From contig JBAWZH010000001.1 in the NCBI GenBank assembly GCA_037143135.1, positions 9,553 through 73,552 on the forward strand: 64,000 nucleotides of DNA, read 5' to 3'. The stretch's first letter is position 1, and each line of letters starts with the position of its first letter. Positions 15,978 to 31,622 of the stretch are shown here, one piece after another. Made by a program: the position numbers and the translations under genes. Origin of the DNA: a bacterium. Its GTDB lineage: Bacteria > Verrucomicrobiota > Kiritimatiellia > CAIKKV01 > CAITUY01. The notes below the pieces were generated by a model. The model was not told the origin of the DNA, did no database searches, and saw nothing but the letters and a program-made list of their open reading frames with translations.

Positions 15978-16006
15978 CCATAGCCCAATCATTCTTTCGT
16001 CCGTCC

Positions 16007-16480
16007 TTATTTGCGTATAAAGAATATGAGGCCCAGCAGAATGGCCATGCCAACAATGGCAACTCCGATAGATAAGAAGTTCCGTGGAGCGACACCTTCT
16101 CTCCTCATTAACAGCCGCCACCCTTGCTCGTATTCAACATATTTTCGCATCACTGGTCCCGGATCAGGGCCGAGTGATGAAACAAAGACAGTGCATGATT
16201 GAGCCATGATATCTCTTTGTCTTCTGTCTCCCGCCAGATGAGACCATGCTGAAATAAACGAGGATGCCAGCATGTATCGGTGCATTAAGGATAGCTCATC
16301 GAGAGAAAGGGACATCGAGCGCGACCAATCAGAATCAGTTGCCGTGCTTGCCCCCTCAATAAATGCTCTTAATCCATTCGTGTAGACCAAAGCTATCGCG
16401 GGCGGATGTCTATTAATTGCCTGTTCCTGTTGATCTGTGAGCTCTGCTATATGCTGAAGTGATTTTTGCTTCTCAGTCAT
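16007..16480 (-). CDS. Hypothetical protein with C-terminal TM anchor, coupled to the PLD nuclease
   Basis: Its start overlaps the PLD gene stop by 4 nt. C-terminal helix FLSIGVAIVGMAILLGLIFFI. Confidence 0.5.
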   Translation of the reverse strand: MTEKQKSLQHIAELTDQQEQAINRHPPAIALVYTNGLRAFIEGASTATDSDWSRSMSLSLDELSLMHRYMLASSFISAWSHLAGDRRQRDIMAQSCTVFVSSLGPDPGPVMRKYVEYEQGWRLLMRREGVAPRNFLSIGVAIVGMAILLGLIFFIRK

Positions 16481-17010
16481 TTTCCCTCGTAAATATCAGA
16501 ATGAGCTGCATGAGTTTTCCAGTTCTTAAGATACTTCTCTGCTAGAGTCGGATCCCTAATTACAAGGATGTTTTCAGCGTTATTACTTTCCGCCGCCTTG
16601 GTAAAGTTAAAACTCCCGGTGATCACAATATTTTCATCAATGACTATGACCTTGTTATGGGCAATGGCGTGCTGGGCATCTATCATCGTTTCGATCCCTG
16701 AGTGAGCAAAGAAGTCTGCCGAAGAATATTTCCCGGTTCGTTGGCTCTTGTCCAAAATAACGCTTACCTTAACACCCTGCTTATGGGCATTCAGGAGCGC
16801 CTTCGCGATGGTATCGGATGTGAATGAGTATGCCTGCACATGGATGGTGGTTCGTGCCTTTGCTATCTCAGCGACGATGGCTGCAGTACACCCGCCCTGC
16901 GGTGAGAAATAGACCGCCCAGGCCGGGTTTGTGCCGTTTGCCCAGACCGGGCCTGATAGTAGAGCAGCTAAGCAGACTGCAAAAAGCGATGAAAATCTAG
17001 ACCCAGTCAT
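16477..17010 (-). CDS. Secreted phospholipase-D-family endonuclease (Nuc-like)
   Basis: Signal peptide MTGSRFSSLFAVCLAALLSGPVWA. Single HKD motif HNKVIVIDENIVITGSFNFTKAAESNNAEN. The size (177 aa) is typical of Nuc. Confidence 0.8.
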   Translation of the reverse strand: MTGSRFSSLFAVCLAALLSGPVWANGTNPAWAVYFSPQGGCTAAIVAEIAKARTTIHVQAYSFTSDTIAKALLNAHKQGVKVSVILDKSQRTGKYSSADFFAHSGIETMIDAQHAIAHNKVIVIDENIVITGSFNFTKAAESNNAENILVIRDPTLAEKYLKNWKTHAAHSDIYEGK

Positions 17011-17269
17011 GCAGGGACATTAGCACCGTTCCTTCGTAATGAAAACCGTGATGACGAGCTGATGGAAGCGCATATGCCGGAAAAGGGTAAAATCCACCGC
17101 CAGAAACGGGGTTTACCCTCTTGATTGACAGCAGCAATCGTGTCGCCGACAGGTGAAAACTAGACAGAATATACCATGGTCTTGACATCTGGAGGCACCT
17201 AAGTTACAAGATTCAACTAGAGCAACGGCGAATAACTGTGATTCGATTGCGTCATTGAGGTTCACTGCA

Positions 17270-17500
17270 ATGCCACATGAAAAACAGATCAAGCATGATG
17301 ATGTATTGAACGCTGACGAGGCTTCCACCTGGCTTAAAATCCCTAAGTCCACCCTCTACAAGTTATGTAGCGAAGGTGAACTGCCGGCCGCAAAGGTGGG
17401 GCGTCATTGGCGATTCCACCGGGAAACGCTTGAGCAATGGTTGTTAGAGAAGACTCAGCGCCCCCAGGCCGATGACCCAGAAGCCAATTCAGAGGAATAA
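17270..17500 (+). CDS. Excisionase/MerR-superfamily HTH DNA-binding protein
   Basis: LNADEASTWLKIPKSTLYKLCSEGELPAAKVGRHWRFHRETLEQWL matches the excisionase-family HTH. ATG 17270 chosen; the ORF track uses TTG 17255. Confidence 0.7.
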   Translation: MPHEKQIKHDDVLNADEASTWLKIPKSTLYKLCSEGELPAAKVGRHWRFHRETLEQWLLEKTQRPQADDPEANSEE

Positions 17501-17501
17501 T

Positions 17502-18608
17502 ATGCCACTTCTCCAGGAAGGCTTAAATATACGAGGGACATACGAAGTGGAGAAATTCCTCGGCGAGGGCGCTTTTGCCGAGGTTTACCGCGTCCGGCAC
17601 CGGTTTCTTGGCCGACAGGCCATGAAGGTTTTCAAGCGCCTTAACATGACCGAAGAGGAAGTGCTCGATGCGCTGAATGAGGCGATTCTGCTGACGCACC
17701 TCAAACACCCCAATATTGTTAGTGTCCACGATGCAAACGTTTTTGAATTTCCCAAAGGTGTCTGCGGCTACTTCACAATGGAATTTGTGCCAGGGGGCAG
17801 TCTTGATAGGTTTTGGAGATCGCACGGCTCCACTCTTGTCCCGATTGAGACGACGGTCGACGTCATGCGTCAGGTATGCCGGGGTCTTTCCATTGCTCAT
17901 GCAGGAACCCCACCCATCATTCACCGTGACATAAAACCTCAAAATATTCTCGTGGGTTATGAGGCCGACGGGCTTCGCGCCCGAGTAAGCGATTTCGGAT
18001 TAGCCAAGAAGGTTAATCCGCTGACACTCCTTGCAACTGCTGCCGGGACGCTTCAATTCAAACCCCCGGAAACATTTCTGAAGTCGAAGGCAGATTCGTG
18101 TGCAGCTGACGTTTGGGCGCTTGGTGTGACGCTCTACCTCTTATTAACCGATCAATTTCCCTTCGAGCTTGATTCTGATTTGGGCTGGTCAAACAAGAAG
18201 GCATTTGAAAAGGAAATCACTCCTCCCAATTCATGGAACGTCGAAGTCGATCCTGCCCTTGAGAAAATTGTTTACAAATGTCTCAAGCCGAAACCAGAGG
18301 ATCGATATCCGACAGCCAAAGAATTGCTTGAAGCCTTGGAATCCTGGAAAAAGCCTTCACCCTCCAAAATCATCAAGCCGGCAAAAACAGTTTCTTCGGA
18401 AATGTCAAAAAGCATTCTTGGGGCACATTCACCTATCAATCAAGAAGAAGGTCATCGCCTAGTCAAGCAAGCCGTCAAGAAGGCTAAGGAAGAGGGGCGA
18501 TTGTTTGAGGCTGCTGATCTTATGGAAGAGGCTTTTAACAAGTCGCCATCACTTCGGCAGAAGTATGCGAACCAAGTCAAACTATGGCGTTGCGGCATCA
18601 GCATGTAA
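17502..18608 (+). CDS. Hanks-type Ser/Thr protein kinase
   Basis: LGEGAFAEVY (G-loop), QAMKVF (Lys), IIHRDIKPQNIL, VSDFGLAK and GTLQFKPPE are all present. ATG 17502 has GAGGA 5 nt upstream, directly after the HTH stop. Confidence 0.85.
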   Translation: MPLLQEGLNIRGTYEVEKFLGEGAFAEVYRVRHRFLGRQAMKVFKRLNMTEEEVLDALNEAILLTHLKHPNIVSVHDANVFEFPKGVCGYFTMEFVPGGSLDRFWRSHGSTLVPIETTVDVMRQVCRGLSIAHAGTPPIIHRDIKPQNILVGYEADGLRARVSDFGLAKKVNPLTLLATAAGTLQFKPPETFLKSKADSCAADVWALGVTLYLLLTDQFPFELDSDLGWSNKKAFEKEITPPNSWNVEVDPALEKIVYKCLKPKPEDRYPTAKELLEALESWKKPSPSKIIKPAKTVSSEMSKSILGAHSPINQEEGHRLVKQAVKKAKEEGRLFEAADLMEEAFNKSPSLRQKYANQVKLWRCGISM

Positions 18609-18612
18609 ACCA

Positions 18613-21420
18613 ATGAACACCAACGAAGATATATACGAATGTCGTTTGGCGGCAGAAGGTGGCGATGCCGAAGCCCAGTACCAGCTGGGCTTGAAGTTCG
18701 TTAACGGACAAGGTGTAGAAAAGGATGAGGCAGAAGCTGTAAGGTGGTATCGAAAAGCTGCCGAACAGGGGCATTCTACTTGTCAATATTTCCTTGGCTG
18801 GTATCTCGCCAACGGTCGGGGTGTTGAAAAGAATGAAGCGGAAGCCGTCACATGGTATCGAAAAGCTGCCACTCAGAATGTTTTAGGCGCACAATTTGAC
18901 CTTGGGGTTATGTATGCCAATGGTCGTGGCGTGACTAAGGATGCTGTTGAGGCGGCTAAATGGGCTCGCAAGGCAGCTGAACAGGGGCATGCAGAAGGTC
19001 AATATTATCTTGGGTGGTATCTCGCCCGTGGTCAGGGAGTGAATAAGGACGAAGTAGCGGCAGTCACATGGTATCGTAAGGCCGCTGAACAGGGTAATGC
19101 TGGCGCGCAGTGCGAAATGGGGATTATGTGTGCCGATGGGCGAGGTACGGGAAAAGATGCAGCAGAAGCCGCGATGTGGTTTCGCAAGGCCGCAGCTCAG
19201 GGAAACAAGAAAGCGCAGGAACTTCTATCCAATCTGCCTCAAGCAGCTCAAACAATACAAGCCCCAGCGGCTAAACCACGAGCCGCAAGTCGTGAAGCAA
19301 AAGCGGCTGCGCCAGAGTGCAAACCCCTATTGGATGCCAGTACACCCAGAGTTTACGTCCAAAACGCCTTCAGAATCACGGGACTTGCTGTTGATGCACA
19401 AACGCGAGACATCAAGCGTCGCATCGATGACCTAAAACACGCCGAAGAAAATGGGGAAGCAGAGGATGAGCATAATCATGCGTTTGCAATTGTTCCGCCC
19501 CCCTCAATTGAACATATCCGTGAAGCTGCACAGAGATTGCATGATCCGGAGCGTCGTCTAATCGAGGAGTTCTTTTGGTTTTGGCCTAGTGAATGGGGTA
19601 AAGGGAATTCAGATCCCTCATTACTTGCGATGAAGAATGGGGATAAAGACACCGCGTTTAAGAATTGGCTGGCATGTATCTCCGATGACGCCAAGAGTGG
19701 AGTCGTTTCGCGAAATGGAGGAATAGTAATCCGCGATCAGTCGGCTTTGGCAAGCCCTCGCGAAATTGCGGTTGCCAAGCATAATCTTGCAGTGATGTAT
19801 CAACTGGTTGCTCTCGACTCAGAGCATCACGTTCTGGAAAACGAATTTACTGCGGCACAACTTGAAACCATCGAGCAATATTGGCGTAAATGTTTCAAAT
19901 GGTGGGAAGAACTAACTGAGGACGAAACCTTTTGGAGCCTGATAACTGAGAGAATTCGCATGTATAACGAGCCGGAACGCCTCAAAACCGGATTTGCTCG
20001 ACAAATGCGTGCTTCTCTCCCGGAGGCGATGGACAAAATCAATGCCATGCTGGCAATTAGCTATTCTGAACGCGGGAAACTGGCGCTAGCGGAGAATCAC
20101 ATCCGTTATATGAAGGAGACGCATCAAGGTCAGGATGATATTGAGAAAACCTTAGCAATGGTGACGCAACCGCTTAAGGCTCGTGTCATAAGTTATGTGG
20201 AGAAAGCTACTGGCGTGGCGGATAGGCAACCACAGCAAGCCGCTAAATCGGCACGTGAATTGTTGCAGGCGGTTGCCGAACCAATGAAGATCATTCAGCA
20301 GATCCTGTCGCCAGAGGATCACGTGCGAATTGATCTATTCGACAGCGTCGCTGAAGCGTGCCTGACATGCCAACTTGCCTATGCGCGCGAAACGAAAGAT
20401 TGGTCAGCGAGCCTAGCAATTATCGAAGATGGCGCCAAGTACGCCGTCTCCAGTGAGACGAAAAAAAGACTTGCCGAGAATATTGCAAAAGTTACCAGAA
20501 ATAAACTTTTCGGGCAGTATATTGAACCTCTAGCAGAGTTAATTGAGAAGAGCCGAGCCAGAAGTTCAACAGCGGCGAAAGTGAGATCCGTTGAAGAGAA
20601 TCTGCTGCCCTACCTTAAGAAAATAGAGAGTGCCAAAGGCGTTAGCATTGATGTCTATAATGAGTGTGCGGATCTTGTTGCACTCTTTGTCCGGGGGGTA
20701 TCAATTTCTGCATATAATGAGGATAACGATTTGGCCGGCTCGATTAACATTTTAAATATTGCGCTAAACACAGCTCGAGGCCGAGAAGCACGTGAACAAT
20801 TGCAAAAAGATAAAGATCAGCTTAAAGGTTTTGAGGCTGAATCCACCAAACATAATCTTCGTATGCAGATTCGTGGTGACGACATTGAGATCACTCGCGA
20901 CTATGTTCGCTACAAACAGGATAAAATTCCAGTTTCTCAAATCCAAGGCGTTAAATTTGGTGTCTTTGTGCAGTACACAAACGGCGTGGAATCAAGTTCA
21001 TCGTATTTGATCGATATTACGGATGGCGGCAACATAAGAATCCACATTGAGTGCAAGCGAATATTTCGCGGTAAATCAGATGCCGAACAGGATTACAGAC
21101 GGATCCTCGACGCGATTTTTGAGCAGATCGCCACTCCGCTAGTTCAGAAGTTGGCTCAAAGCGTAGTCGCGGGGCGACCCTTGCAGATGGGGGGAGCTCG
21201 ATTAACGTCCGAAGGAGTCTATCTAACAACAGGATCTCTTTGGTGGCAAAAAGAAATAATGGTCCCGTGGTCAGACATCCGATACGGAAATCATCAAGGT
21301 TCGCTGAATCTGTCATCATCAAAGGATAAGAATATTTCTACTTCCATGGCATTACGTGACGCGTGGAATGCTGTTTTCTTTGAATATATTGCCAAAGCAG
21401 TAGTAAAGCTTAAAGGCTAA
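18613..21420 (+). CDS. Sel1-repeat protein with a degenerate J-like segment and a large C-terminal region
   Basis: About six Sel1 repeats (AEAVRWYRKAAEQGH ... AQYxLGxxYxxGxGVxKD). The J-like segment is NAFRITGLAVDAQTRDIKRRIDDLKH ... AAQRLHDPERRLIEEFFWFW, without HPD. ATG 18613 lies 4 nt after the kinase stop; the ORF-track start 18505 overlaps the kinase. Confidence 0.65.
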   Translation: MNTNEDIYECRLAAEGGDAEAQYQLGLKFVNGQGVEKDEAEAVRWYRKAAEQGHSTCQYFLGWYLANGRGVEKNEAEAVTWYRKAATQNVLGAQFDLGVMYANGRGVTKDAVEAAKWARKAAEQGHAEGQYYLGWYLARGQGVNKDEVAAVTWYRKAAEQGNAGAQCEMGIMCADGRGTGKDAAEAAMWFRKAAAQGNKKAQELLSNLPQAAQTIQAPAAKPRAASREAKAAAPECKPLLDASTPRVYVQNAFRITGLAVDAQTRDIKRRIDDLKHAEENGEAEDEHNHAFAIVPPPSIEHIREAAQRLHDPERRLIEEFFWFWPSEWGKGNSDPSLLAMKNGDKDTAFKNWLACISDDAKSGVVSRNGGIVIRDQSALASPREIAVAKHNLAVMYQLVALDSEHHVLENEFTAAQLETIEQYWRKCFKWWEELTEDETFWSLITERIRMYNEPERLKTGFARQMRASLPEAMDKINAMLAISYSERGKLALAENHIRYMKETHQGQDDIEKTLAMVTQPLKARVISYVEKATGVADRQPQQAAKSARELLQAVAEPMKIIQQILSPEDHVRIDLFDSVAEACLTCQLAYARETKDWSASLAIIEDGAKYAVSSETKKRLAENIAKVTRNKLFGQYIEPLAELIEKSRARSSTAAKVRSVEENLLPYLKKIESAKGVSIDVYNECADLVALFVRGVSISAYNEDNDLAGSINILNIALNTARGREAREQLQKDKDQLKGFEAESTKHNLRMQIRGDDIEITRDYVRYKQDKIPVSQIQGVKFGVFVQYTNGVESSSSYLIDITDGGNIRIHIECKRIFRGKSDAEQDYRRILDAIFEQIATPLVQKLAQSVVAGRPLQMGGARLTSEGVYLTTGSLWWQKEIMVPWSDIRYGNHQGSLNLSSSKDKNISTSMALRDAWNAVFFEYIAKAVVKLKG

Positions 21421-21470
21421 CCTGACAAAAACTGTCTGATTTTATGTAACACAACGAATAGGAAGCACCT

Positions 21471-22034
21471 ATGAGCAAACAGAAGCGTATGCAGGCGAGT
21501 CCGCCGAGTCGTGGTATTGTCCACATGTTTAACATGCTTAATCTCAAGCTCCCAAAGGAGCTGCGACTTCCTCCCCTCAATGACGCACCTAATTTAAACG
21601 CCCTTAAGACTCGCTTCAATGAGCTTGAAGCATTGTTGGCGCGGTCGAAGACTTCAACCCGAATCTCATCTTCTACCCCGGCTGCACCGAATCTTGATGA
21701 AAAAGCGATTGCGAACCTGGCCACTAATGCTTGGCGTGCTAAAACCAAGATGCTTGACCAGGATTCGGGTGAAGTTAAGGAAGAAATGAAGCGTGTGTAT
21801 CGGCACATTGAAGCTATCTTTGAAACGCTGAAAGGGCTGGGTGCTGAGATTCTTGACCCATGCGGTCGAAATTATGATTCCGGCATGGCGTTAAAGGTTA
21901 TCAGTTTTGAGCCGACCCCGGGAGTTTCAAAGGAAGAAATTAAGGAAACAATCAAACCATCTGTGATGTGGCAAGGACGCCTTATACAAATGGGTGAGGT
22001 AATTGTGGGTACTCCCAGCAAAGTAGATAAATGA
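21471..22034 (+). CDS. GrpE-like nucleotide-exchange-factor homologue
   Basis: The C-terminal part IEAIFETLKGLGAEILDPCGRNYDSGMALKVISFEP ... GRLIQMGEVIVG follows the GrpE four-helix/beta-domain pattern (G-x-E-x-I ... G-x-x-(F/Y)D ... V-x-V). It sits directly upstream of an Hsp70 gene with an ATGA overlap. Confidence 0.55.
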   Translation: MSKQKRMQASPPSRGIVHMFNMLNLKLPKELRLPPLNDAPNLNALKTRFNELEALLARSKTSTRISSSTPAAPNLDEKAIANLATNAWRAKTKMLDQDSGEVKEEMKRVYRHIEAIFETLKGLGAEILDPCGRNYDSGMALKVISFEPTPGVSKEEIKETIKPSVMWQGRLIQMGEVIVGTPSKVDK

Positions 22035-24529
22035 TTAATGAGGGAATGAATATGACAAGAACAACTATTGACTTCGGAATCGATCTTGGGACAACAAACA
22101 GCGCGATCGCTGTTCTAAATGGCACGCGGCCCGATGTCATTAAAAACAACGTGGATACTGATATTACTCCGTCGGCTGTGTTTATTGATAAGCGTGGATT
22201 GGTTCAAGTAGGTCAACGTGCAAAGAATCGCCAGGAGGATGAAAGCGCTGTAGACGACGTTTACATTGAGTTCAAACGCCGCATGGGTACTGACCACCGG
22301 TACGAGTTCAAAACAGCGGCGCGAACTATGCGGCCAGAAGAAGTTTCCGCCGAAGTCCTGAAAAGTTTACGTGGTGATGTTCAACAACGCCTGGGTGAGG
22401 ATGTCCAATCAGCCGTTATTACTGTGCCTGCTATATTTGAACAGAATCAATGTGCGGCAACTATTAAGGCTGGGCAACTTGCAGGGTTTGTTCAGTGTCC
22501 ACTGCTTCAAGAACCGGTTGCGGCAGCTCTTGCCTATGGTTTTCAATCTGATGTTACAAAAGAGTATTGGCTCATTTACGACTTCGGTGGCGGTACATTT
22601 GACGCTGCAATCATGAAGGCGGAAGACGGTGGTATTAGCGTGGTTAATCACGGTGGGGATAACTACCTTGGCGGCTCTGATATTGACTGGGCAATTATCG
22701 ATCAATTGATAATTCCAGACCTTAAGTCAAAGTTCAACCTGCCCGAGTTTTCGAGAAATAACAATAAATGGCGGACCGAATTTGCTCGCATTAAAAATGC
22801 AGTTGAAATTGCGAAAATTCAGCTTTCTCGCAGTGATACTGCCTTTTTGGAAGGGGGTGTGCTTAAAGATGCGGATGGGAAAAGGGTGGAACTGGATTTC
22901 AAGCTAACCAGAAATGCACTTGTTGGAGTTGCCGAGCCATTCATTATGCGCTCGGTCGAAATATGCAAAAGAGTTTTGAAGGAGAAGGGGCTATCGCCGA
23001 CTGCAATCGAGAAGGTTATTCTGGTTGGTGGGCCAACCCTTGCGCCATATTTCCGTGATATGCTGAAGTCCGGCTTAGGTATTCACCTTGATCATTCCGT
23101 AGATCCGCTGGTTGTTGTGGCGAAGGGTGCTGCTGTGTTTGCAGGAACTCAACGATTTGATACTGGTGCGGCGCCTCGACCCATTGCGGGCGAGTACAGC
23201 GTCGACCTGAAATACAAACCCGTTGGCGCTGATGAGGATCCGACTGTTCGAGGGGAAGTTACAGCAGATTCCGGCACAAGTATTGAGGGATTAACAATTG
23301 AGTTCGTCAATAATAAGAGCCTCTGGCGGAGCGGTAAAATTCCGCTAAAAACAGGAGGGAAATTTAAAGTCAACTTGTTGGCAGAGAAAGGCGGCCAAAA
23401 TGTATTCAGTATTGAGCTTGTAGACTCAAAAGGGCGCAAGCAGATTGTTAAACCGGATAATCTCTCCTACACAATCGGTATGGCGATATCTGAGCAGCCG
23501 TTTTGTAACGATGTTCGGTTAGCACTTGCAAATAACGATAGTGAGATATTCTTTAAAAAAGGTGATGCGTATCCCGCTACGCATTCATACCGGGGTTTCA
23601 AGACAACTCAAACGGTTCGCAAAGGCGAAAGTGGTGACATGCTCCGCATTCCAGTGGTTGAAGGTAATGAGGAGAAAGCAGACTGGAACCGCAAGTTGGG
23701 TGAACTAGTCATTTCCGGATCACAAATTAGACGCGACGTGCCTGCTGGCAGTGACCTTGAGGTTACTTTGCACGCAAAAGGTCCGGGAGCAATCCTCGCC
23801 AAAGCATATGTACCGTTGCTTGATGAGGAATTTGAGGCGATTATTGATTATGATAGGAAAGAACTGAATGTTAAGGATTTGCGCCGCCAATTTGAAGCCG
23901 AGTCAAAACGGCTTAAATCTTTAACTGCTAAAGCGAATGATGCAGAAGATGAGGGCGCTGGTAACTTGCTCGAAAGCGTGCCCGATATGGAAGTGATAGA
24001 CGGCCTCCTTGATACGGCAAAGGGGGATCCTGACTCGGCAAAAAAAGCGGAAAAGCGACTTATTGAATTGCGCATTCATTTGGATAAGGCCGAAGATTTA
24101 CTCAAATGGCCCGCGCTGGTGACGGAAGCCAAAACGGCGCTTGATGATTTAGATGAACTGATCGAGAAACACGGCGACGATACTCATCGCGATCAAAGTG
24201 CAAAATTCCGGGATCAGATTAAAGATCTAATTACCCAAAAACGCACTGAACCATTACGAAAGAAAGTCGCTCAAGTCTCAGATCTGCGTCTTGAAATACT
24301 TTTAGCACAACCAGGTTGGTGGGTGGGTTACCTTGAATATCTCATCGAACGACAGGGTAAGATGAATGATCAAGATAGCGCCGAGCGTCTTATCAATCAG
24401 GGAAGGCTTGCTATCAGCAAAAACAATCTTCAGGGGTTGCGTAGCGCCGTTGTCCAACTCTTAGACCTCTTGCCTAAGGAGGTTCAGGATGAAGTTCAGA
24501 GGGGATTTGGATCGGGAGTAATCAAGTAA
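22031..24529 (+). CDS. Non-canonical Hsp70 (DnaK-family) ATPase, 832 aa
   Basis: IDFGIDLGTTNSAIAVL, AVITVPAIFEQNQ, IYDFGGGTFDAAIMK and ILVGGPTLAPYFRDML are the actin-fold phosphate-1, connect, phosphate-2 and adenosine motifs. An SBD-beta-like part follows (LRIPVVEGNEEKADWNRKLGELVISG ... LEVTLHAKGPGAILAKAYV), then a long helical tail. Confidence 0.85.
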   Translation: MINEGMNMTRTTIDFGIDLGTTNSAIAVLNGTRPDVIKNNVDTDITPSAVFIDKRGLVQVGQRAKNRQEDESAVDDVYIEFKRRMGTDHRYEFKTAARTMRPEEVSAEVLKSLRGDVQQRLGEDVQSAVITVPAIFEQNQCAATIKAGQLAGFVQCPLLQEPVAAALAYGFQSDVTKEYWLIYDFGGGTFDAAIMKAEDGGISVVNHGGDNYLGGSDIDWAIIDQLIIPDLKSKFNLPEFSRNNNKWRTEFARIKNAVEIAKIQLSRSDTAFLEGGVLKDADGKRVELDFKLTRNALVGVAEPFIMRSVEICKRVLKEKGLSPTAIEKVILVGGPTLAPYFRDMLKSGLGIHLDHSVDPLVVVAKGAAVFAGTQRFDTGAAPRPIAGEYSVDLKYKPVGADEDPTVRGEVTADSGTSIEGLTIEFVNNKSLWRSGKIPLKTGGKFKVNLLAEKGGQNVFSIELVDSKGRKQIVKPDNLSYTIGMAISEQPFCNDVRLALANNDSEIFFKKGDAYPATHSYRGFKTTQTVRKGESGDMLRIPVVEGNEEKADWNRKLGELVISGSQIRRDVPAGSDLEVTLHAKGPGAILAKAYVPLLDEEFEAIIDYDRKELNVKDLRRQFEAESKRLKSLTAKANDAEDEGAGNLLESVPDMEVIDGLLDTAKGDPDSAKKAEKRLIELRIHLDKAEDLLKWPALVTEAKTALDDLDELIEKHGDDTHRDQSAKFRDQIKDLITQKRTEPLRKKVAQVSDLRLEILLAQPGWWVGYLEYLIERQGKMNDQDSAERLINQGRLAISKNNLQGLRSAVVQLLDLLPKEVQDEVQRGFGSGVIK

Positions 24530-24640
24530 GGACGGTACGTCTTACGACCATAATTAGGAGTTCTTTTTGTCAGTACCAAGGCATAAGAAACAGTGATGGA
24601 TTCCAGGGTTAGCGGTCAATGCAAGTGAACGGCGATCTTC

Positions 24641-25897
24641 ATGGCGAATGGGGAAATCAACTTCGACGAAATGCGAGCACCCGAGGTGGTTCGACCGCTT
24701 TCATTAAAGCAGGAAAAACCACCACGGGTGTCTACGCCCCCCCCGCCACTTAAGCAGCCCCCTCCGCCGCCCATTCCGCGTGCAGCCGCTCGCCCTCCAT
24801 CACCCCCGGCCGCAACACAAACTTCTCAAAAACAAAAACCAACTTCGATCGCACCAAAACCGCCAGAGACTAATAACGCATGGGTCGGCATCCTCGTTGT
24901 TGCGGGAATCATATTGTTGATCTGTTTCATGGTCGGGATTAGTTCGAGTCAGAACGGCGAAACTCCCAGGAATAATACCAGTGCGCCATCCGATCAAGTA
25001 CGCGTTCCGGAACAATCGATTATTCAACACATTCCCGAAACCGTAACAACAGTATTCCCGGAAACTCCAAAGGCGCCGATCCCGACACAAGTTGTACCTG
25101 ATATTCCGAAAACGACAGGTTCATGTCGGATTTCTGCTTTTGCAGTCGCTGGGAACGGAGAAAGACATTCTGTAACTGGAAATGCCGTTATTGCGTTCAG
25201 GCATGTTGATACAAGCGCGGCAATTTCGACGAATGTGATGATTCCGCGGATATGGCACGATATGCCAGCCGGGGAATACCACTTTGCCATTTTTATTTCT
25301 GGATTCACCCAGTCTTTTACAAATAAGATCAACATAACTGCGGATGATTACAATAATGTCGCTTTTTCATTGCAACCTCTCCCCGCTCGAGTGACCTTTG
25401 TCTGCCCATCAAATTCATTACCCTTCGCGATCTTTGATGATCACGGGTACCTGGGAAGCTCTGACAAAAGTTTTGAACTTTCGCCCTACCTCACCCATTT
25501 CTTGACGTTCAAAGCAGAAGGATGGCGTGACAAACCCATGAAGGTCAAGTTGGAGAAGCCAGGCGGGGCGTACCGATGTGCTGTTGAAATGGAACGTATC
25601 GCGTCAGGGCTTCGCATCACAGTTAGTGCAAATAAAGGGGAACCGCCGGTGGCCGGTGCTCTGATTGTGAATGGCGGGGAACCGGTAAAAGTGGCGTTCC
25701 CGTCCGAACAATCAAATTTGGCTTTCGCTGGCCCGTTGTCACTCGTTCTGGCGGTTGACGGGTATCAGGTCATTAACAACACCCAGCAAGTCACTCTCAT
25801 TGATAGAGAAATGGTTAACATTGAATTTCAGGTTGTGAAGAAATCATGGCTGTCGCGGATGCTTAACGGATCAGCTCGTAAGCAAATACAAAAGTAA
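24641..25897 (+). CDS. Pro-rich single-TM protein with PEGA/beta-sandwich-like extracytoplasmic repeats
   Basis: PPPPLKQPPPPPIPRAAARPPSPP tract, TM helix AWVGILVVAGIILLICFMVGI, then beta-rich segments with PEGA-like MPAGEYHFAIFISGF. Confidence 0.45.
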   Translation: MANGEINFDEMRAPEVVRPLSLKQEKPPRVSTPPPPLKQPPPPPIPRAAARPPSPPAATQTSQKQKPTSIAPKPPETNNAWVGILVVAGIILLICFMVGISSSQNGETPRNNTSAPSDQVRVPEQSIIQHIPETVTTVFPETPKAPIPTQVVPDIPKTTGSCRISAFAVAGNGERHSVTGNAVIAFRHVDTSAAISTNVMIPRIWHDMPAGEYHFAIFISGFTQSFTNKINITADDYNNVAFSLQPLPARVTFVCPSNSLPFAIFDDHGYLGSSDKSFELSPYLTHFLTFKAEGWRDKPMKVKLEKPGGAYRCAVEMERIASGLRITVSANKGEPPVAGALIVNGGEPVKVAFPSEQSNLAFAGPLSLVLAVDGYQVINNTQQVTLIDREMVNIEFQVVKKSWLSRMLNGSARKQIQK

Positions 25898-25945
25898 GTG
25901 CGACAATCCGCTTGTGACTGCGGTCATTGCGAGGAAGGTAAAGTA

Positions 25946-26959
25946 ATGAATAACGAAATCGAAACCGGCGAGGATAATTCAGGGTTATCCAATGATCTTG
26001 ATCTTCTTGAGGCTTCGCGCCTTATAACGGCTGGCGAAATCACTCAGGCGGAGGAAATCCTTCGGCGGATACATGCACGCATGCCCTCCTGTGAAGCATT
26101 AGACTTGATGGCGCGCATCTCAGTTTCAAAAGGGCAAATGTCCGAGGCGAGGCGCCTGTGGCAGGAGGTACTGGAAATTGATCGTTCCAATGTCTCGGCC
26201 AAATCTGCATTGGCGCGGCTCGACAGCCCATGGCTTGTTCCGGCAATTCTCGCGAGGTGTGGCTTTCTTGTCACAATTGCATTGCTGGCGAGTTTGGTGA
26301 TCGTTGGCGTTTTTGCTTTGTTCAACATTCAGCGTTTTATCGATTCAAATCATCCTGGTGGTTTTCAATCTTCAGAAACTGTAATTCATATTTCCAGTTC
26401 CGAATGCCCAACGAGAGATCAATCTCAGCCATCCACCACAGGAGATATCAAATCATCGAAAACAGTAGCGCAGGAAGACGCACCCATTCCGGTGCAACCT
26501 TTCAGCAACCCGCCTCCATTGTTTTCAATTCCTGCTTGTAGCGTCACCACGAATTTAACAGAAACCAGGATCATCTTTGAGGAGGGCATATTTGCGCGGC
26601 GATGCGAGTTAGTCAGCGATGCAAATGCGCGCCTCGATGCAGTCTCCCGAACCTTGTCTGAGCGCGGGACAGGTTGTTGGATCATAGTTGAGGGCTATAC
26701 GGATTCCGATCCGATTTCGGCTAATAGCATCTATCAGGATAATTTTGACTTGGGCATGCATCGCGGATTAGTAGTGGCTGAAGTACTGAAAATGTCGACG
26801 ACAATTCCTTCGCAAGATATTCTTGTCGGTTCAGCTGGGGATAATATCTCCCCATTGTTCCCGGGAGACGAGCCTGAGGTGAAAATGAAAAACAGAACGG
26901 TGGTCATTCATGTTATGCCGAAAGCATCAGCAACGACCACACTCGGAGAATCAAAATGA
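25946..26959 (+). CDS. TPR - TM - OmpA_C-like (peptidoglycan-binding) protein
   Basis: N-terminal TPR-like helices, TM helix FLVTIALLASLVIVGVFALF, and C-terminal IIVEGYTDSDPISANSIYQDNFDLGMHRGLVVAEVL (OmpA/MotB C-domain pattern). ATG 25946 has GAGGAAGG upstream; the ORF track uses GTG 25898. Confidence 0.65.
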   Translation: MNNEIETGEDNSGLSNDLDLLEASRLITAGEITQAEEILRRIHARMPSCEALDLMARISVSKGQMSEARRLWQEVLEIDRSNVSAKSALARLDSPWLVPAILARCGFLVTIALLASLVIVGVFALFNIQRFIDSNHPGGFQSSETVIHISSSECPTRDQSQPSTTGDIKSSKTVAQEDAPIPVQPFSNPPPLFSIPACSVTTNLTETRIIFEEGIFARRCELVSDANARLDAVSRTLSERGTGCWIIVEGYTDSDPISANSIYQDNFDLGMHRGLVVAEVLKMSTTIPSQDILVGSAGDNISPLFPGDEPEVKMKNRTVVIHVMPKASATTTLGESK

Positions 26960-28329
26960 GTTTGAACGCAGACCTTTCTATTCAACTTGTCTGGGCCATA
27001 GCGAACACTGAAGCTAATCTTTCAGGCGAGAAACGCATTCGACCAATTCACTTCTATTTAGGCATTCTCAAGTTGGTTGATCCAAGATTCCTGAAACAGT
27101 TGCATGGTGTGGATATACCGGAAGAGGAACAGCGCAGCCTCGGACAACTGTCCAAAGATGTCCGGCACTATCTTGAGATGACGGTTGATGAAATCACGAA
27201 ATTGCGCCGAGCCCTTAGAAGCGGGTTGCGAGAGGGAACGCCTGAAAAAGTCGAAATACACATGCTGCACAGATCAGATGATTCGAGAAAAGTCTTTCTG
27301 GAGGCTGGGAATAAAGTGATTCAAGCCGGGGGTAAGTCTTTGTCCGTCCTCCAGCTCGCAGAAGCTCTTTTCGAGTCTGGCGCCATCAGTCTAGATGGCC
27401 TTAAACGTCCCCATGGGCGTCCAAGTTCGAAAGGCGCGAAATGGGAGGTCGTTAATGACGGGAAGCCAGACAATCAAAAAAAGTATTCAGAATGGTTCGG
27501 GCGTAATCTGCTGAAAATGGCAATTGAGGGGACACTGCCACCTTTTGAGGGAAGAGAGCGGGAAATTAAAACCATCCTACGCGTTCTTTCCCGAACAAGA
27601 AAACGCCATATTGCCATCATCGGTGATCCTGGAGTTGGTAAAACGGCGCTAGTCGAAGGTCTGGCAAAGACTATTGCAGAGAAAAAGGTGCCTGTTGATT
27701 TGCATAATTCGGAAGTCCTTGAACTTCATGGCAGCGATATTTCAGCTGATTGTAAGAGCGAAGCAGAAATTAACCGGCGCATCTCGCATGTATTTCATGT
27801 TCTCGAGAACCATAAGCGGGCTGTACTTCTGCTCGATGATTTTCATGGTCTGTTCCCCAGCCATTTGAAGCATGATGCGACAGTTGACCTTCTTACAACT
27901 CTTCTGGCTGAGGATAATACTCCTGTGATTATTACAACCTTACCCGGGAAATGGGCGGGATTAACTGCCAGTGCGCCATCTCTTTTGAGGCATTTCGAGG
28001 TCATCAATATAACGGATCCGTCAGAAATGGAATGTAAGCGTGTTGCAGAGGCGTGGGTAAAGCGTATCGCAGAATCGCAAAGGATTAACTTCGCCCCAAA
28101 AGTGCTTGAGGCCATAATATCAGCGGCGGCTGGGTTATCGGCAGATCGGGCTTTAATTGATCGAATTGTGGATTTGATCGAGAATGCGGCAACATATGTA
28201 AAAGTGTCGGCGTTTTCATCAAATGATGCACGGCGCGACGTAACCACCGAGGTTATAGCGTCTGTCCTTACGGAGCATCACAAAGTTCGCTCAGTTAGAG
28301 CACCAAGAAGCATTGGTGAAAATCCATGA
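26956..28329 (+). CDS. Clp_N domain + single ClpA/ClpB-D1-like AAA+ module
   Basis: Clp_N-like N-terminus (IRPIHFYLGILKLVDP). FEGREREIKTILRVLSRTRKRHIAIIGDPGVGKTALVEGLA (Walker A). Walker B reads VLLLDDFH. ATGA overlap with the upstream gene. Confidence 0.75.
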   Translation: MSLNADLSIQLVWAIANTEANLSGEKRIRPIHFYLGILKLVDPRFLKQLHGVDIPEEEQRSLGQLSKDVRHYLEMTVDEITKLRRALRSGLREGTPEKVEIHMLHRSDDSRKVFLEAGNKVIQAGGKSLSVLQLAEALFESGAISLDGLKRPHGRPSSKGAKWEVVNDGKPDNQKKYSEWFGRNLLKMAIEGTLPPFEGREREIKTILRVLSRTRKRHIAIIGDPGVGKTALVEGLAKTIAEKKVPVDLHNSEVLELHGSDISADCKSEAEINRRISHVFHVLENHKRAVLLLDDFHGLFPSHLKHDATVDLLTTLLAEDNTPVIITTLPGKWAGLTASAPSLLRHFEVINITDPSEMECKRVAEAWVKRIAESQRINFAPKVLEAIISAAAGLSADRALIDRIVDLIENAATYVKVSAFSSNDARRDVTTEVIASVLTEHHKVRSVRAPRSIGENP

Positions 28330-28497
28330 AAGATGGCTATCAATTGGCAATATCATTCTCAAAGATGATATAGGTCAGCCAATACGTACTGTCCAAAAGT
28401 GAGACGCAACAACTTTATGTCTTGATCATCCTGGTATACCAAACGATAAACTGAACCATTCTTATCCTAATTCATCCGTCTTCATACCACTAGAAGC

Positions 28498-28526
28498 TTG
28501 ACAAGTGGCTTGATTTGGAGTCTAAT
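28498..28526 (+). promoter_or_regulatory. Candidate sigma70-type promoter for the HTH-SNF2 operon
   Basis: TTGACA (28498-28503), a 17-nt spacer, then TCTAAT (28521-28526), about 50 nt upstream of ATG 28575. Confidence 0.3.
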
Positions 28527-28574
28527 TACATAAGTTGTTGTCTCCGTGAATATTCCATAAAGGGGGGCATTGTT

Positions 28575-28754
28575 ATGGATGACCGATGGTTCTCTGTTGA
28601 AGACATAGCTGCATATCTGGGAGTCAAAAAAGACACCATCTATAAATGGGTGCGCCTTAAGGCAATGCCAGCTCACAAGGTAGGGCGGTTGGTGAAATTC
28701 AAGGTCACAGAAGTTGACCAGTGGATTAGGTCAGGCAAGGCTAGACAACAATAA
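28575..28754 (+). CDS. Excisionase/MerR-superfamily HTH DNA-binding protein
   Basis: FSVEDIAAYLGVKKDTIYKWVRLKAMPAHKVGRLVKFKVTEVDQWI. ATG 28575 has a G-rich RBS 8 nt upstream; the ORF-track start is 28515. Confidence 0.7.
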   Translation: MDDRWFSVEDIAAYLGVKKDTIYKWVRLKAMPAHKVGRLVKFKVTEVDQWIRSGKARQQ

Positions 28755-28757
28755 TGT

Positions 28758-31622
28758 ATGAAGATTACCGACTACCATGCCAAATACTACGCTTGTGAGT
28801 TGACCAAACGGTGTCCATCCGACAGCGTTGAGAAACTTGCGGCTTCGCTGGTTGATGCCCAGGTCGATCTGAACCCCCATCAAGTTGAAGCGGCCCTCTT
28901 TGCGTTCAAATCCCCATTTTCAACCGGGGCAATTCTCGCCGATGAAGTGGGCTTGGGTAAAACCATTGAAGCGGGACTCGTTCTGTCCCAGATATGGGCT
29001 GAAAAGAAACGCAAGATACTCATCGTTGTCCCATCAAGCTTGCGTAAACAATGGAACCAGGAACTCGCTGAAAAGTTCTTTCTTCCCTCCGAAATCCTGG
29101 AATCCAAGCCATTCAATGATTACGTCAAGGCCGGGCATCCGAATCCATTCCAGCAAGACAAGATCGTTATCTGTTCCTATCATTTCGCCCGGAACAAGGC
29201 AGATTACGCCGGTAAGGTTAGTTGGGATCTTGTGATTTTCGATGAAGCGCATCGTTTGCGCAACGTATATAAGCCGGAAAACAAGATAGCAAGGACCCTC
29301 AAAGAATCGCTAGGTCATTGCCCGAAATTGCTTCTAACAGCCACCCCTCTCCAAAACTCTTTGCTGGAGCTCTATGGGCTTGTGAGTTTCATTGATGAAT
29401 ACAGTTTCGGTGATCTGAAAAGTTTCAAGAATCAGTATGCTCGGATCAATACGCAGGAGACGTTTATCGAACTCAAAGCCCGCCTTGCGCCGATCTGTAA
29501 GAGAACCTTGCGACGGCAAGTCCTTGAGTATGTCAAATATACGAACCGCATTCCCATAACCCAAGAGTTTGTGCCGACGAAGGACGAAGAAAGACTTTAC
29601 GATCTCGTCTCCGACTACTTGCAGAGGCCTAATCTTCAGGCGCTCCCAGCCAGTCAACGTTCTCTTATGACGCTGGTGCTCCGCAAACTGCTTGCTTCCT
29701 CTACATTTGCAATTGCAGGGGCTTTGAACACGCTCATACACCGCCTCGAAGCCCGCATGAAGAACTCCAAAGTCGTTGATGCCAGCGCAGAGTTGTCCAT
29801 TGACTTTGAGGGGCTGGACGAAATCAAAGATGAATGGAATGACGAAGATAGTGATGCTGATGGGCCTGAGCAGATTACCAAAGAGGATGCGGATGCCATT
29901 GCGCAGGAGATCAGGGAACTTAAGGATTTCAGGATGTTGGCTGAATCCATTGCTCAGAATGCCAAAGGGAAAGCCCTCATCAAGGCTTTGAAAGCGGGAT
30001 TTGATAAGGCCACGACCCTTGGCGCAAGCAAAAAGGCTGTGATATTCACCGAATCCTGCCGCACCCAGGAATACCTGATTCGCCTCCTTTCCAATACCGA
30101 GTATGCGAATGGTATTGTGTTATTCAATGGCCAGAATAATCATCCGCAAGCCAAGCAGATTTATGGCGAGTGGCTCAAGAAGCATGAAGGCACCGATTTA
30201 ATCACGGGTTCAAGGACCGCCGATCTTCGCGCGTCTCTCATTGATAATTTCCGCGACGATGCACAGATCCTCATTGCGACTGAAGCCGCGGCAGAAGGTA
30301 TAAACCTGCAATTCTGTTCCCTAGTCGTGAATTATGATCTGCCATGGAATCCCCAACGCATTGAACAGCGCATTGGCCGTTGTCACCGATACGGGCAGAA
30401 ACATGATGTAGTTGTCGTCAATTTCCTGAATAAGAAGAATGCCGCCGATCAGCGGGTTTACCAGCTACTTGCCGAGAAGTTTCAGTTGTTTAGCGGCGTA
30501 TTCGGTGCCAGCGACGAAGTTCTGGGCAGTATTGAGTCCGGCGTGGATTTTGAAAAGCGTATTGTGGCCATCTATCAGACCTGCCGAACACCGGAGGAAA
30601 TTGAGGCCTCATTCGACCTTCTTCAGAAAGAGCTTTCTGGTCAAATTGATGAGACCATGAAAGTCACCCGGCAGCAGCTTCTGGATAACTTTGACGAAGA
30701 AGTCCATGAGAAGCTTCGGGTGAACCTGCAAGCCAGCAAGGATTACTTGAATCGGTATGAATCGCTTCTCTGGCGCCTCACATCACATGCCCTTACTAAC
30801 TTTGCGAAAATAGATGATTCAGCGTTAACATTTGACCTAACGGCCAATCCTTTCCCAACAAATAGCATTCCCTTAGGCCATTATCGCTTTGGCAGAGAGG
30901 TGGCTGATGCGCATCATTATCGGTTTGCCCACCCTCTTGCTCAACAGATCCTGCACGATTCCAAGGGTCTGAAACTACCGGCCGCAGAGGTTTGTTTCGA
31001 CTACTCTGCAAATCAGGCGCAGATCACGGCGATCATGCCTTTATTGAAGAAATCCGGGTGGATACGGCTTTGTCAGCTCACAGTCTCGTCATTTGAGGCC
31101 GCCGATTACCTTCTGTGGGCCGGGATCACAGATGATGGGGCGGCGCTCTCCGATGAACAATGCAAAAGACTATTCAACCTCCCTGCCGTTTCTGGGAAAA
31201 CTTGCTATTCAGCGCCTTCCGAGGATTCTTCCCTGAATAGCATTCTTAAGGGGGGTGAGAAGTCTATTCTCCAGAGCAATGCAGAGCGTGACGCTGGATT
31301 GTTTGACGCAGAAATGGGTAAGCTCGAACATTGGTCTGAAGACATGAAGACCAGCTTGGAAATCAAATTGAAGCAATTGGATATGGACATCAAAATGCGC
31401 AAAGCCGAAGCGCGTAAGATCACCAACCTTGAAGATAAGGTCAAAGCCCACCGCGAAATTAAAGACCTTGAGAAATCCCGTAACGATATGCGTCTCAACC
31501 TCTACCAAGCTCAGGATGACGTAGAGAACCAGAAAGAACGTTTGATAGAAAAGATTGAGGCAAGACTGAAGCAAAACGTAAATAAAACCGACATCTTTAC
31601 CATTCGCTGGAGGGTAGTATGA
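28758..31622 (+). CDS. SNF2-family helicase/translocase with unassigned ~350-aa C-terminal region
   Basis: ILADEVGLGKTIEAG (I), DLVIFDEAHRLRN (II), LLLTATPLQNSLLELYGL (III), NYDLPWNPQRIEQRIGRCHRYGQ (VI). The C-terminus ends in a K/E-rich coiled coil. Confidence 0.85.
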   Translation: MKITDYHAKYYACELTKRCPSDSVEKLAASLVDAQVDLNPHQVEAALFAFKSPFSTGAILADEVGLGKTIEAGLVLSQIWAEKKRKILIVVPSSLRKQWNQELAEKFFLPSEILESKPFNDYVKAGHPNPFQQDKIVICSYHFARNKADYAGKVSWDLVIFDEAHRLRNVYKPENKIARTLKESLGHCPKLLLTATPLQNSLLELYGLVSFIDEYSFGDLKSFKNQYARINTQETFIELKARLAPICKRTLRRQVLEYVKYTNRIPITQEFVPTKDEERLYDLVSDYLQRPNLQALPASQRSLMTLVLRKLLASSTFAIAGALNTLIHRLEARMKNSKVVDASAELSIDFEGLDEIKDEWNDEDSDADGPEQITKEDADAIAQEIRELKDFRMLAESIAQNAKGKALIKALKAGFDKATTLGASKKAVIFTESCRTQEYLIRLLSNTEYANGIVLFNGQNNHPQAKQIYGEWLKKHEGTDLITGSRTADLRASLIDNFRDDAQILIATEAAAEGINLQFCSLVVNYDLPWNPQRIEQRIGRCHRYGQKHDVVVVNFLNKKNAADQRVYQLLAEKFQLFSGVFGASDEVLGSIESGVDFEKRIVAIYQTCRTPEEIEASFDLLQKELSGQIDETMKVTRQQLLDNFDEEVHEKLRVNLQASKDYLNRYESLLWRLTSHALTNFAKIDDSALTFDLTANPFPTNSIPLGHYRFGREVADAHHYRFAHPLAQQILHDSKGLKLPAAEVCFDYSANQAQITAIMPLLKKSGWIRLCQLTVSSFEAADYLLWAGITDDGAALSDEQCKRLFNLPAVSGKTCYSAPSEDSSLNSILKGGEKSILQSNAERDAGLFDAEMGKLEHWSEDMKTSLEIKLKQLDMDIKMRKAEARKITNLEDKVKAHREIKDLEKSRNDMRLNLYQAQDDVENQKERLIEKIEARLKQNVNKTDIFTIRWRVV

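Follow-up and report, generated by a model that had tools for sequence, protein, structure and literature searches.

Two HTH_17 winged-helix genes leading defence operons in a Kiritimatiellia genome, and their candidate promoter-operator modules

Introduction

Small helix-turn-helix (HTH) autoregulators that head defence operons are an already known kind of protein. Two genes that may belong to this kind, HTH1 (17270..17500, forward strand, 76 aa) and HTH2 (28575..28754, forward strand, 59 aa), are found in a stretch of 64,000 nucleotides from a bacterium of the Kiritimatiellia (Verrucomicrobiota; GenBank assembly GCA_037143135.1, contig JBAWZH010000001.1, positions 9,553 to 73,552), the whole of which is called the window here and provides the numbering. 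Each gene is the first cistron of a long defence-type operon, operon A behind HTH1 and operon B behind HTH2. Judged by comparison of sequences, both proteins are probably head-to-tail binders of the Xis/BldC type that autoregulate the operon they lead, each within a portable module of promoter, operator and regulator. To this known kind the present analysis adds the picture of a portable module, a set of candidate operators and a correction to the extent of operon B.

The closest named relative is MAD1, likewise a small HTH_17 protein whose gene opens a long defence operon. The authors of the MADS work termed MAD1-type proteins 'widespread regulators', made MAD6, MAD7 and MAD8 mandatory in their model of the system and found that deletion of mad1 had a limited effect on defence (bioRxiv 10.1101/2023.03.30.534895). 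Both window proteins match the PADLOC mad1 model (1.2e-8 and 1.6e-10), and the NCBIfam equivalog antiphage_MADS1 (NF047737) gives 74.2 bits with HTH2 and 51.3 bits with HTH1, both below its cut-off of 80. The likeness extends to the cargo of operon A, which begins with a kinase matching mad6 (7e-63), but the MAD2-8 set is present in neither operon: PADLOC finds, besides this kinase, a marginal mad8 (1.6e-5) and no mad7 in operon A, and a mad8-like HerA (2.7e-27) and no mad6 or mad7 in operon B.

The structural relatives are regulators and excisionases. BldC of Streptomyces binds variable numbers of direct repeats head-to-tail, and the excisionases Xis and RdfS bind phased direct repeats in the same head-to-tail manner. 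BldC (PDB 6ama, 6amk) resembles the window proteins in being a winged helix of ~60-70 aa devoid of an effector domain (TM-score 0.64-0.78), and differs from them in sequence (13-20% identity) and in being a global developmental regulator encoded alone, whereas the window HTHs lead mobile defence cassettes. RdfS of ICEMlSym (8dgl), Pukovnik Xis (4j2n) and Tn916 Xis (1y6u) have the same Pfam/TIGRFAM domain and are matched with E values of 1e-3 to 3e-2 and TM-scores of ~0.7. Unlike them, the window HTHs and their relatives lack a cognate integrase or att context, and their candidate arrays are located at their own promoters. What the window proteins have in common with BldC/Xis-type binders is a small winged helix accompanied by helically phased direct repeats (17214-17241 and 28453-28488), to which they would bind.

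The restriction-modification (R-M) controller (C) proteins are Xre-type (HTH_3) dimers that act on palindromic C-boxes. They are small HTH proteins heading R-M operons, which autoregulate and delay restriction after transfer (bioRxiv 10.1101/2025.09.30.679545). Position at the operon head is common to both groups, and much of the cargo of HTH2 and its relatives is methylation-based, but neither window protein matches HTH_3 and the repeats at both leaders are direct, with no convincing inverted ones. According to three reports, the WYL-domain proteins BrxR and CapW are regulators upstream of many defence systems and islands, BREX among them (PMC9122589, PMC9122601, PMC9122588). These are larger and have a ligand-sensing WYL domain; the window HTHs, of 59-76 aa, have no WYL match and no sensor. 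C proteins and BrxR/CapW are thus functional analogues with other folds and another operator logic. The AlpA prophage regulators (PF05930) are related small HTH proteins of the same fold group, matched weakly by HTH2 (19.6 against a gathering threshold of 21) and not by HTH1. A limited literature search found no paper on HTH_17 genes that lead BREX, DISARM or R-M systems, nor on the phased repeats of such leaders, which does not amount to proof of novelty.

Domain, fold and position of the two HTH genes

The initial annotation of this DNA had assigned one fold to both open reading frames (ORFs), and its coordinates and peptides proved exact. The Pfam profile HTH_17 (PF12728, cut-off 27) matches HTH1 with an E value of 2e-16 (60.4 bits) and HTH2 with 5.8e-15 (55.7 bits), and the TIGR01764 profile, 'excisionase family DNA-binding' (cut-off 28.8), gives 56.0 and 62.7 bits, respectively. 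In agreement with them, AlphaFold2 models (pLDDT 73.6 and 87.6) present a common beta-alpha-alpha-beta-beta-alpha winged helix, MerR-like, to which HTH1 adds a disordered acidic tail; HTH2 is MAD1-like. By both Pfam and the models each protein consists of one domain, with no effector or dimerisation domain. The best structural matches in the PDB are RdfS, Pukovnik Xis, RacA, the BldC-DNA complexes and the DNA-binding domains of the MerR family, while a sequence search of the PDB returned marginal matches only. Since these top matches include both recombination directionality factors (RDFs) and transcription factors, the modelled fold alone cannot separate the two functions.

The two genes had also been called paralogous. 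Family and fold are indeed common to them, but they are only 30% identical over 54 aa (E 1e-9, pairwise), while each is 64-98% identical to relatives on unrelated contigs. For this reason they are not recent paralogues; they form distinct subfamilies, each evidently brought in by its own cassette and not by duplication in situ. A profile search found no third copy among the window ORFs of at least 40 aa.

Both genes lie directly 5' of a multi-gene string, as had been noted, with gaps of 1-3 nt: a single nucleotide separates the HTH1 stop codon (to 17500) from the kinase ATG at 17502, and three separate the HTH2 stop codon (to 28754) from the SNF2 ATG at 28758. Genes are tightly packed throughout both operons; with their likely start codons reassigned, the Sel1 and HerA genes follow their neighbours after only 2-4 nt.

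Promoter and direct repeats of HTH1

A sigma70-type promoter is predicted for the HTH1 operon at 17182..17210 on the forward strand, read from the sequence as a -35 box TTGACA (17182-17187), a 17-nt spacer and a -10 box TACAAG (17205-17210), which would place the transcription start site (TSS) at ~17217. The skeleton TTGAC(A)-N17-TACA(A/C)G recurs in 14 HTH1 relatives at a constant distance from the ATG, and is followed by 2-3 direct repeats. Three such repeats, a candidate HTH1 operator, occupy 17214..17241 on the forward strand of the window: CAACTAGAG at 17214, CAACGGCGA at 17223 and TAACTGTGA at 17233, with start spacings of 9 and 10 nt. They follow the unit YAACNRNNG and overlap the predicted +1 to +25.

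The repeats are a property of the family. Its last repeat, TAACTGTG, is found at about -37 from the ATG; of 27 non-redundant upstream regions from the HTH1 family, 8 contain it, against 0.1 expected. The shorter [TC]AACTG is present in 18 of the 27, with a modal position of -37, where shuffled sequences gave a mean of 1.9 and a maximum of 7; on the opposite strand only one of the 27 has it. Autocorrelation of 4-mers in the family peaks at distances of 9-10 nt (z ~4) and 19 nt (z 7.2). YAACTGTG is not significantly enriched over the window as a whole (7 copies vs 3.05 expected), and only the copy at 17233 is at a promoter.

The motif changes together with the protein. In the clade with the wing AKVGRHWRFH, YAACTG occurs in 15 of 16 upstream regions; in the clade with the wing KIGKHWRFD, whose cargo is not defensive, it occurs in one of eight, and TAACGR in five of eight. 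The co-variation of motif variant and wing is significant (Fisher p = 1.8e-4). Over the HTH1 family the alignment has a near-invariant core, WLKIPKSTLYKLC..GELPAAKVGRHWRFHR.

Promoter and phased array of HTH2

The predicted promoter of the HTH2 operon (28498..28526, forward strand) has a -35 box TTGACA (28498-28503), a 17-nt spacer and a -10 box TCTAAT (28521-28526), and a ribosome-binding site (RBS), AAGGGGGG, precedes the gene at 28560-28567 on the same strand. Directly upstream of the -35 box, four units phased at 10 bp (28453..28488, forward strand) form a candidate binding array for HTH2: GAACC at 28453, TATCC at 28463, CATCC at 28473 and CATACC at 28483. Counted from the predicted TSS, at ~28533, these NAWCC units span positions of about -35 down to -80. 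An alignment of HTH2 upstream regions (alignment A3) has an invariant TTGAC and a conserved -10 block, and TTGAC is present in 53 of 87 HTH2-family upstream regions, the shuffle mean being 15.5. Within the array, ATNC-N6-ATNC (28464-67 and 28474-77) does not vary among six loci, which between them have three types of cargo.

For 69 non-redundant genes of the family, the phasing was measured in an unbiased way, as the distance between identical 4-mers over 160 nt of upstream sequence. The autocorrelation peaks exactly at 10, 20 and 30 nt (z = 11.1, 9.3 and 6.8). The same loci provided a further 162 intergenic upstream regions as a control, and these displayed no periodicity, with 5.3 per 1000 at a distance of 10 against 15.1 in the family, and the largest value at that distance in 200 control subsamples was 7.3 per 1000.

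A universal half-site for HTH2 was sought and discarded: phased pairs of AWYCS / AANCC are ~20-fold over control, but in few loci. Motifs of the TTATCC type had no clear enrichment in HTH2-family upstream regions, and an nhmmer comparison of the window HTH2 upstream region with 84 family upstream regions gave extended similarity in L001 only (L-numbers denote the loci of HTH relatives used for comparison), so that no leader sequence is conserved throughout the family. The conserved promoter block TTGATTTGGAGTSTNATT has 16 matches in viral contigs, which were set aside as chance, there being no HTH gene nearby. A subgroup of HTH2 leaders carries another element, TATTGGACA(A/G), in 16 of 87 loci against 0.1 expected (L018, L021, L023, L026, L030, L047, L049, L058, L080, L085 and others), at about -92 from the HTH start and ~25 nt downstream of a TAGTATGAT-like -10 box; in L018 it forms a perfect TTGGAC-N5-GTCCAA palindrome. 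TATTGGACA is absent from the upstream region of HTH2 in the window.

The inverted repeats in the two HTH intergenic regions are short and unconserved. An element acting at the RNA level is unlikely in the leaders, because a scan of the window yielded no Rfam family and the folding of both leaders does not depart from that of shuffled sequences (z ~0).

Cargo behind the HTH1 family

The cargo of HTH1 consists of seven tightly packed genes (17502..28329), all on the forward strand and annotated with Pfam, PADLOC and NCBIfam: a Ser/Thr kinase (17502-18608), a Sel1-repeat protein (18613, the likely start on re-reading, to 21420), a protein without assigned function (21471-22034), an Hsp70-like protein with a nucleotide-binding domain (22031-24529), a further protein without assigned function (24641-25897), a TPR + OmpA/MotB-like protein (25898-26959) and a ClpA/ClpB-like AAA+ ATPase (26956-28329). 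PADLOC recognised the kinase alone (mad6 / PD-T4-6 models), and no named system.

The same gene order is repeated in L009-L014, L105 and L117. HTH1 relatives of at least 64% identity (64-98%) head this kinase/Hsp70-like/Clp-like cassette on many contigs, usually with a gap of 1 nt; it comprises a kinase, a Sel1-like gene of 639-977 aa, a gene of ~195 aa, an Hsp70-like gene, a gene of ~450 aa, a TPR/OmpA gene and an AAA+ ATPase. The second gene is the most variable, in length (639-977 aa) and in identity (32-63%, against 65-86% for the kinase), and this variability suggests that its product has the role of a sensor. The kinase/Sel1/Hsp70-like/TPR-OmpA/AAA+ cassette is a candidate for an uncharacterised defence system. 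Its identification with a published Hsp70-containing conflict system was considered and rejected: those systems are GTPase/tubulin-centred or of the CoCoNuT/McrBC type, and neither matches.

More distant HTH1 relatives, of 43-62% identity, head operons that are not defensive, such as PilM..PilQ, hybrid His-kinases with FHA-GAF-PAS domains, a periplasmic binding protein and ketosynthases. Such relatives are found in L113-L116, L123, L127, L128, L131, L132, L125, L136, L142, L145 and L152, and the leaders of several of them have repeats of the TAACGR type. The HTH1 subfamily is thus a general operon leader, of which the nearest clade is dedicated to the kinase/Hsp70 cassette.

Some loci carry two leaders. 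In L009 (9001-18234) two HTH1-family leaders are in tandem on one contig, 3.4 kb apart; the first heads a tRNA_bind-domain protein of 952 aa, 47% similar to the Sel1-like gene, and the second the kinase/Hsp70 cassette. In L015/L097 an HTH1 homologue (98% identity over the first 59 aa) heads a cassette that lacks the genes from the kinase to Hsp70 (window 17447-24166 is missing). The opposite strand of these loci carries a second, divergent HTH_17 gene, which leads a type I R-M operon that includes DUF3800 and a QueC-like gene.

Cargo behind the HTH2 family

In the initial annotation the second operon was taken to be the SNF2 and SIR2-HerA genes. Those genes are present, but the operon extends beyond them, through KTSC and Mod/Res, to 39467. 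All on the forward strand, it contains a DrmD-like SNF2 helicase (28758..31622; Pfam SNF2-rel_dom + Helicase_C, PADLOC DrmD 1.3e-212), SIR2 (31648-33009; PADLOC 2.7e-101), HerA (33012, the likely start, to 34784; PADLOC 6.2e-148), a KTSC-domain gene of 73 aa that occupies the apparent 277-nt gap between HerA and Mod (34796-35017; Pfam E 4.2e-23), a type III Mod (35062-36789; Pfam, PADLOC MTase_III 3.3e-186) and, at the distal end, a type III Res (36786-39467; Pfam, PADLOC REase_III 3.3e-173). The cargo hence includes both Mod and Res of a type III R-M system and an adjacent SIR2-HerA defence pair. It is not a DISARM system: the DrmD-like SNF2 is alone, DrmA, DrmB, DrmC and DrmMI being absent from 28758-39467.

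The SNF2 protein is 63% identical to L088_D1, and its DNA is 95% identical to that of L161. In L161 an HTH2 that is 98% identical is followed by the same SNF2, DUF2130, an SMC/AAA_15-like ATPase of 1110 aa, Mod and Res. The DNA of L161 is 95% identical to window 28454-31677 and, starting again at 35049, 82% identical to what follows; the segment between, SIR2-HerA-KTSC (31678-35048), is replaced in L161 (3528-8385) by DUF2130 and the ATPase. The order HTH-SNF2-X-Mod-Res is repeated in L161, L077, L079, L088 and L089. As L161 keeps the flanking frame with different genes in the middle, comparison of the two sequences makes SIR2-HerA-KTSC an alternative, swapped-in insert of that frame. Operon B has in this way one defence pair embedded within the operon of another system.

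Relatives of HTH2 are found in at least 548 genomes, one genome per species being scanned, which belong, by record titles, to ~15 phyla; matches on plasmids add Chloroflexota and Actinomycetota. The counts of cargo and gaps that follow refer to the best 80 relatives, which are 59-77% identical. A co-oriented ORF is downstream of the HTH gene in 76 of the 80 loci, at a median gap of 9 nt. Classified by clustering and PADLOC annotation, the cargo is BrxA-BrxB-BrxC-PglX (BREX) in 19 loci, DrmMII-SNF2-DrmMI in ten, SNF2 first in eight (four of these with a type III Mod too), type I HsdM first in five and DUF499 in three, and there are in addition DUF6079 (BrxC-like) proteins. Recognisable systems based on DNA modification stand behind the HTH gene in 45 of the 76 loci. 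Look-ups of single relatives agree with this census. Examples from cultured bacteria are the annotated plasmids pHRM2a of D. autotrophicum and p1 of V. campbellii, which have, respectively, the orders HTH, helicase, DUF4391, methyltransferase and HTH, HsdR, HsdM, HsdS.

This diversity bears on an alternative in which the HTH protein would itself be part of the defence machinery, as an integral subunit that targets or senses DNA for, say, an SNF2/Mod/Res or a kinase/Hsp70 complex. In its favour, the HTH gene is strictly co-oriented and translationally coupled with that of the first enzyme, and MAD1 is counted as a component of the eight-gene MADS operon. Nevertheless, one subfamily (59-84% identity) heads mechanistically unrelated systems, relatives of HTH1 head pilus and signalling operons, the conserved cis repeats are at the HTH gene's own promoter, and loss of mad1 had a limited effect on defence (bioRxiv 10.1101/2023.03.30.534895). 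A changing cargo behind one HTH subfamily fits a regulator better than a subunit, and we regard the subunit explanation as improbable.

The proteins could instead be hitch-hikers without a function, left over from HTH genes of mobile elements, which provide a promoter and play no regulatory part. They are very small and have no sensor domain, and the mad1 deletion phenotype was weak. The conservation of the family is difficult to accommodate in such a proposal, which seems very unlikely indeed: in the family alignments the DNA-binding core is conserved over ~15 phyla, with many invariant positions in helix and wing; the HTH ORF is intact and has a good RBS in 80 of 80 HTH2-family loci; and the repeat motif co-varies with the wing.

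Boundaries of the modules and recombinase context

A block of 12.5 kb (15979..28453), which comprises the genes of a 157-aa protein and a PLD-like protein (16007-17010, reverse strand) and the whole HTH1 operon, is present in the window and absent from L161/L162. By blastn, L162 1-937 corresponds to window 15043-15978 and L162 1081-1541 to window 28454-28913, with 143 unrelated nucleotides between. The right edge of the block coincides with the first repeat of the HTH2 array and the left edge follows a T-run (...GTGTTCTTTTTC) preceded by stem-like sequence; no repeats flank the junctions. Homology with L161/L162 and with L001 begins at 28454-28464, and L001, whose cargo is an unannotated protein of 633 aa, resembles the window only over 28464-28742, that is, array, promoter and HTH ORF. 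Because the similarity to L001 and the junction in L161/L162 delimit the same unit, it is best read as a portable module of array, promoter and HTH gene that recombination would place before unrelated cargo.

Mobility of this kind raises the question of whether the proteins are RDFs, which would assist a distant tyrosine recombinase, such as that at 54255..54995, in excising the island or its cassettes. The TIGR01764 matches of both proteins and the best structural matches, RdfS and a mycobacteriophage Xis, are in keeping with such a role, as are the mobile-element genes of the island (integrase, RadC, DUF3150, DUF1257), the behaviour of the HTH1 block as a 12.5-kb indel and, in L007/L008, an integrase fragment ~0.8 kb upstream. 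The recombinase context is nonetheless poor. In a scan of the window ORFs between 9 kb and ~57.5 kb, the sole integrase-family ORF is that at 54255..54995 on the reverse strand, at a distance of 25.5 kb from HTH2 and of 37 kb from HTH1, which bears out the initial statement that no integrase adjoins either gene. Around the relatives of HTH2, integrases account for two of the 115 ORFs within 4 kb upstream, so that a cognate integrase, adjacent or in the same element, is found neither in the window nor, as a rule, near these relatives. A search for direct repeats of the att type found none beside the blocks or at the ends of the island, the edges of the indel being a T-run on the left and a promoter array on the right, and no tRNA genes were found in the window with ARAGORN. 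The repeat arrays are instead at the HTH genes' own promoters, and the first-cistron position in long operons is conserved. An RDF function is therefore given very little credence here.

Proposed mechanism and its difficulties

The initial annotation had proposed operon-specific transcriptional regulators and not RDFs, and comparative, computational evidence now backs that proposal: the position as first gene is kept while the cargo varies, integrases are few, and the cis elements are linked to the HTH genes. As a refinement, each regulator would be specific to its own promoter module and not to what lies behind it. As regulators, HTH1 and HTH2 would each be a small HTH protein without a sensor, produced from the promoter-proximal cistron and translationally coupled to the next gene, and each gene would move together with a sigma70-type promoter and 3-4 direct repeats phased at 9-10 bp. 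Copies of the protein would line up head-to-tail along the array, on a single face of the DNA helix, and so feed back on their own promoter. For HTH1 negative autoregulation is predicted, since the candidate sites cover +1 to +25, over the TSS and the early leader; the sites of HTH2 abut the -35 box, and the sign of regulation could be either. We infer DNA binding at the repeats, autoregulation with its sign, and the TSS positions from the sequences. Expression of a defence operon that is costly or toxic would in this way be held at a controlled level and buffered against copy number, above all just after horizontal transfer.

The position of the HTH2 array, upstream of and abutting the -35 box, is also the usual one for an activator. 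AlpA acts as an antiterminator, and HTH2 has a sub-threshold match to the Pfam Phage_AlpA profile (19.6 bits, cut-off 21). Positive control of an AlpA/Q-like kind could thus be envisaged, the more so as the operons are very long and contain internal gaps of 50-111 nt. Bound to the promoter-proximal element, the HTH protein would either be an activator of the promoter or join RNA polymerase for processive antitermination, with read-through of operons of 11 kb as the result; it would still be an operon-specific transcription factor. On the other hand, HTH1 has no AlpA match and its candidate sites on the predicted TSS are repressor-like, and intrinsic terminators do not stand out within either operon. 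An essential activator is moreover difficult to reconcile with the persistence of MADS defence after deletion of mad1 (bioRxiv 10.1101/2023.03.30.534895). Positive control of this kind appears unlikely, if less so than a structural role in the defence machinery.

Several observations weigh against autoregulation through phased arrays as a common mechanism. The repeat unit of the HTH2 family varies by subgroup (AAYCS types, TTTAGT/TATTGGACA type) and the single half-site AWYCS accounts for a minority of the loci, for which reasons part of the periodic signal could come from an UP-like element or from DNA that is intrinsically curved. In the HTH2 family the arrays are upstream of the -35 box in some loci and downstream of the -10 box in others, and no single regulatory logic emerges from them. 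Some relatives of HTH2 stand ~220 nt upstream of a P-type ATPase gene, and not all head defence operons. The modelled fold is equally near to bona fide excisionases and to transcription factors. Both window promoters were read by hand and a stricter consensus scan listed neither, and consensus scans of the two operons for promoters and terminators remained at chance level and gave no usable operon boundaries. Taking these points together with the conserved position, the variable cargo and the linked repeats, autoregulation by HTH1 and HTH2 within portable modules is still judged the probable function.

A broader proposal is put forward more tentatively. The HTH_17 leader, its promoter and its 10-bp-phased array may constitute an undescribed 'plug-and-play' cassette for sensor-less control of expression, distributed over ~15 phyla and placed before BREX, DISARM-like, type I and type III R-M, DUF499/DUF1156 and kinase-Hsp70 systems. 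Binding head-to-tail in a filament-like manner, such a leader might govern the establishment and dosage of toxic, mostly methylation-dependent immunity after horizontal transfer, and would be, with its excisionase fold, a functional counterpart to C proteins and BrxR.

Other genes of the window

The window is a defence island. Upstream of the HTH1 operon are a NERD protein (9170-9652, reverse strand), a CD-NTase/DncV-like gene (13832-14863), CBASS-like, that is followed by a SEC-C-motif protein (14848-15672), and the PLD-like gene with the 157-aa ORF, which is divergent from HTH1 and separated from it by a common intergenic region of 259 nt. A PLD gene adjoins the HTH1 homologue of L015/L097 too. 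Downstream of operon B a complete QatABCD system (39714-44436, forward strand; QatA 2.6e-121, QatB 4.4e-34, QatC 5.6e-95, QatD 2.4e-80) has no HTH_17 leader. It is followed by a stretch with genes of mobile-element or anti-restriction type (45492-57427: AAA ATPase, N6_Mtase fragment, DUF1257, DUF3150, PRTase, RadC, Band_7, Mrr-like nuclease), within which lies the short tyrosine-recombinase ORF mentioned above (54255-54995, reverse strand, 246 aa). Between 61966 and 62300 there are dense tandem short units of the TCGTCCG / CGTCCGTT type, spaced by 8-15 nt, and a pair of 48-nt repeats at 61966 and 62120.

Implications

Few families of regulators, such as the C proteins and WYL proteins, are known for the control and safe establishment of BREX, DISARM and type III R-M systems. 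Should HTH1, HTH2 and their relatives not be regulators, the present observations would amount to an ordinary annotation note. If they are autoregulators, thousands of 'excisionase family' annotations in defence islands would be mis-described, and a compact module of promoter, operator and regulator, with candidate operators, could be put to use in experiments and in expressing defence systems heterologously. Moreover, the leader gene would then flag new defence cargo, as with the kinase/Hsp70-like/Clp-like cassette.

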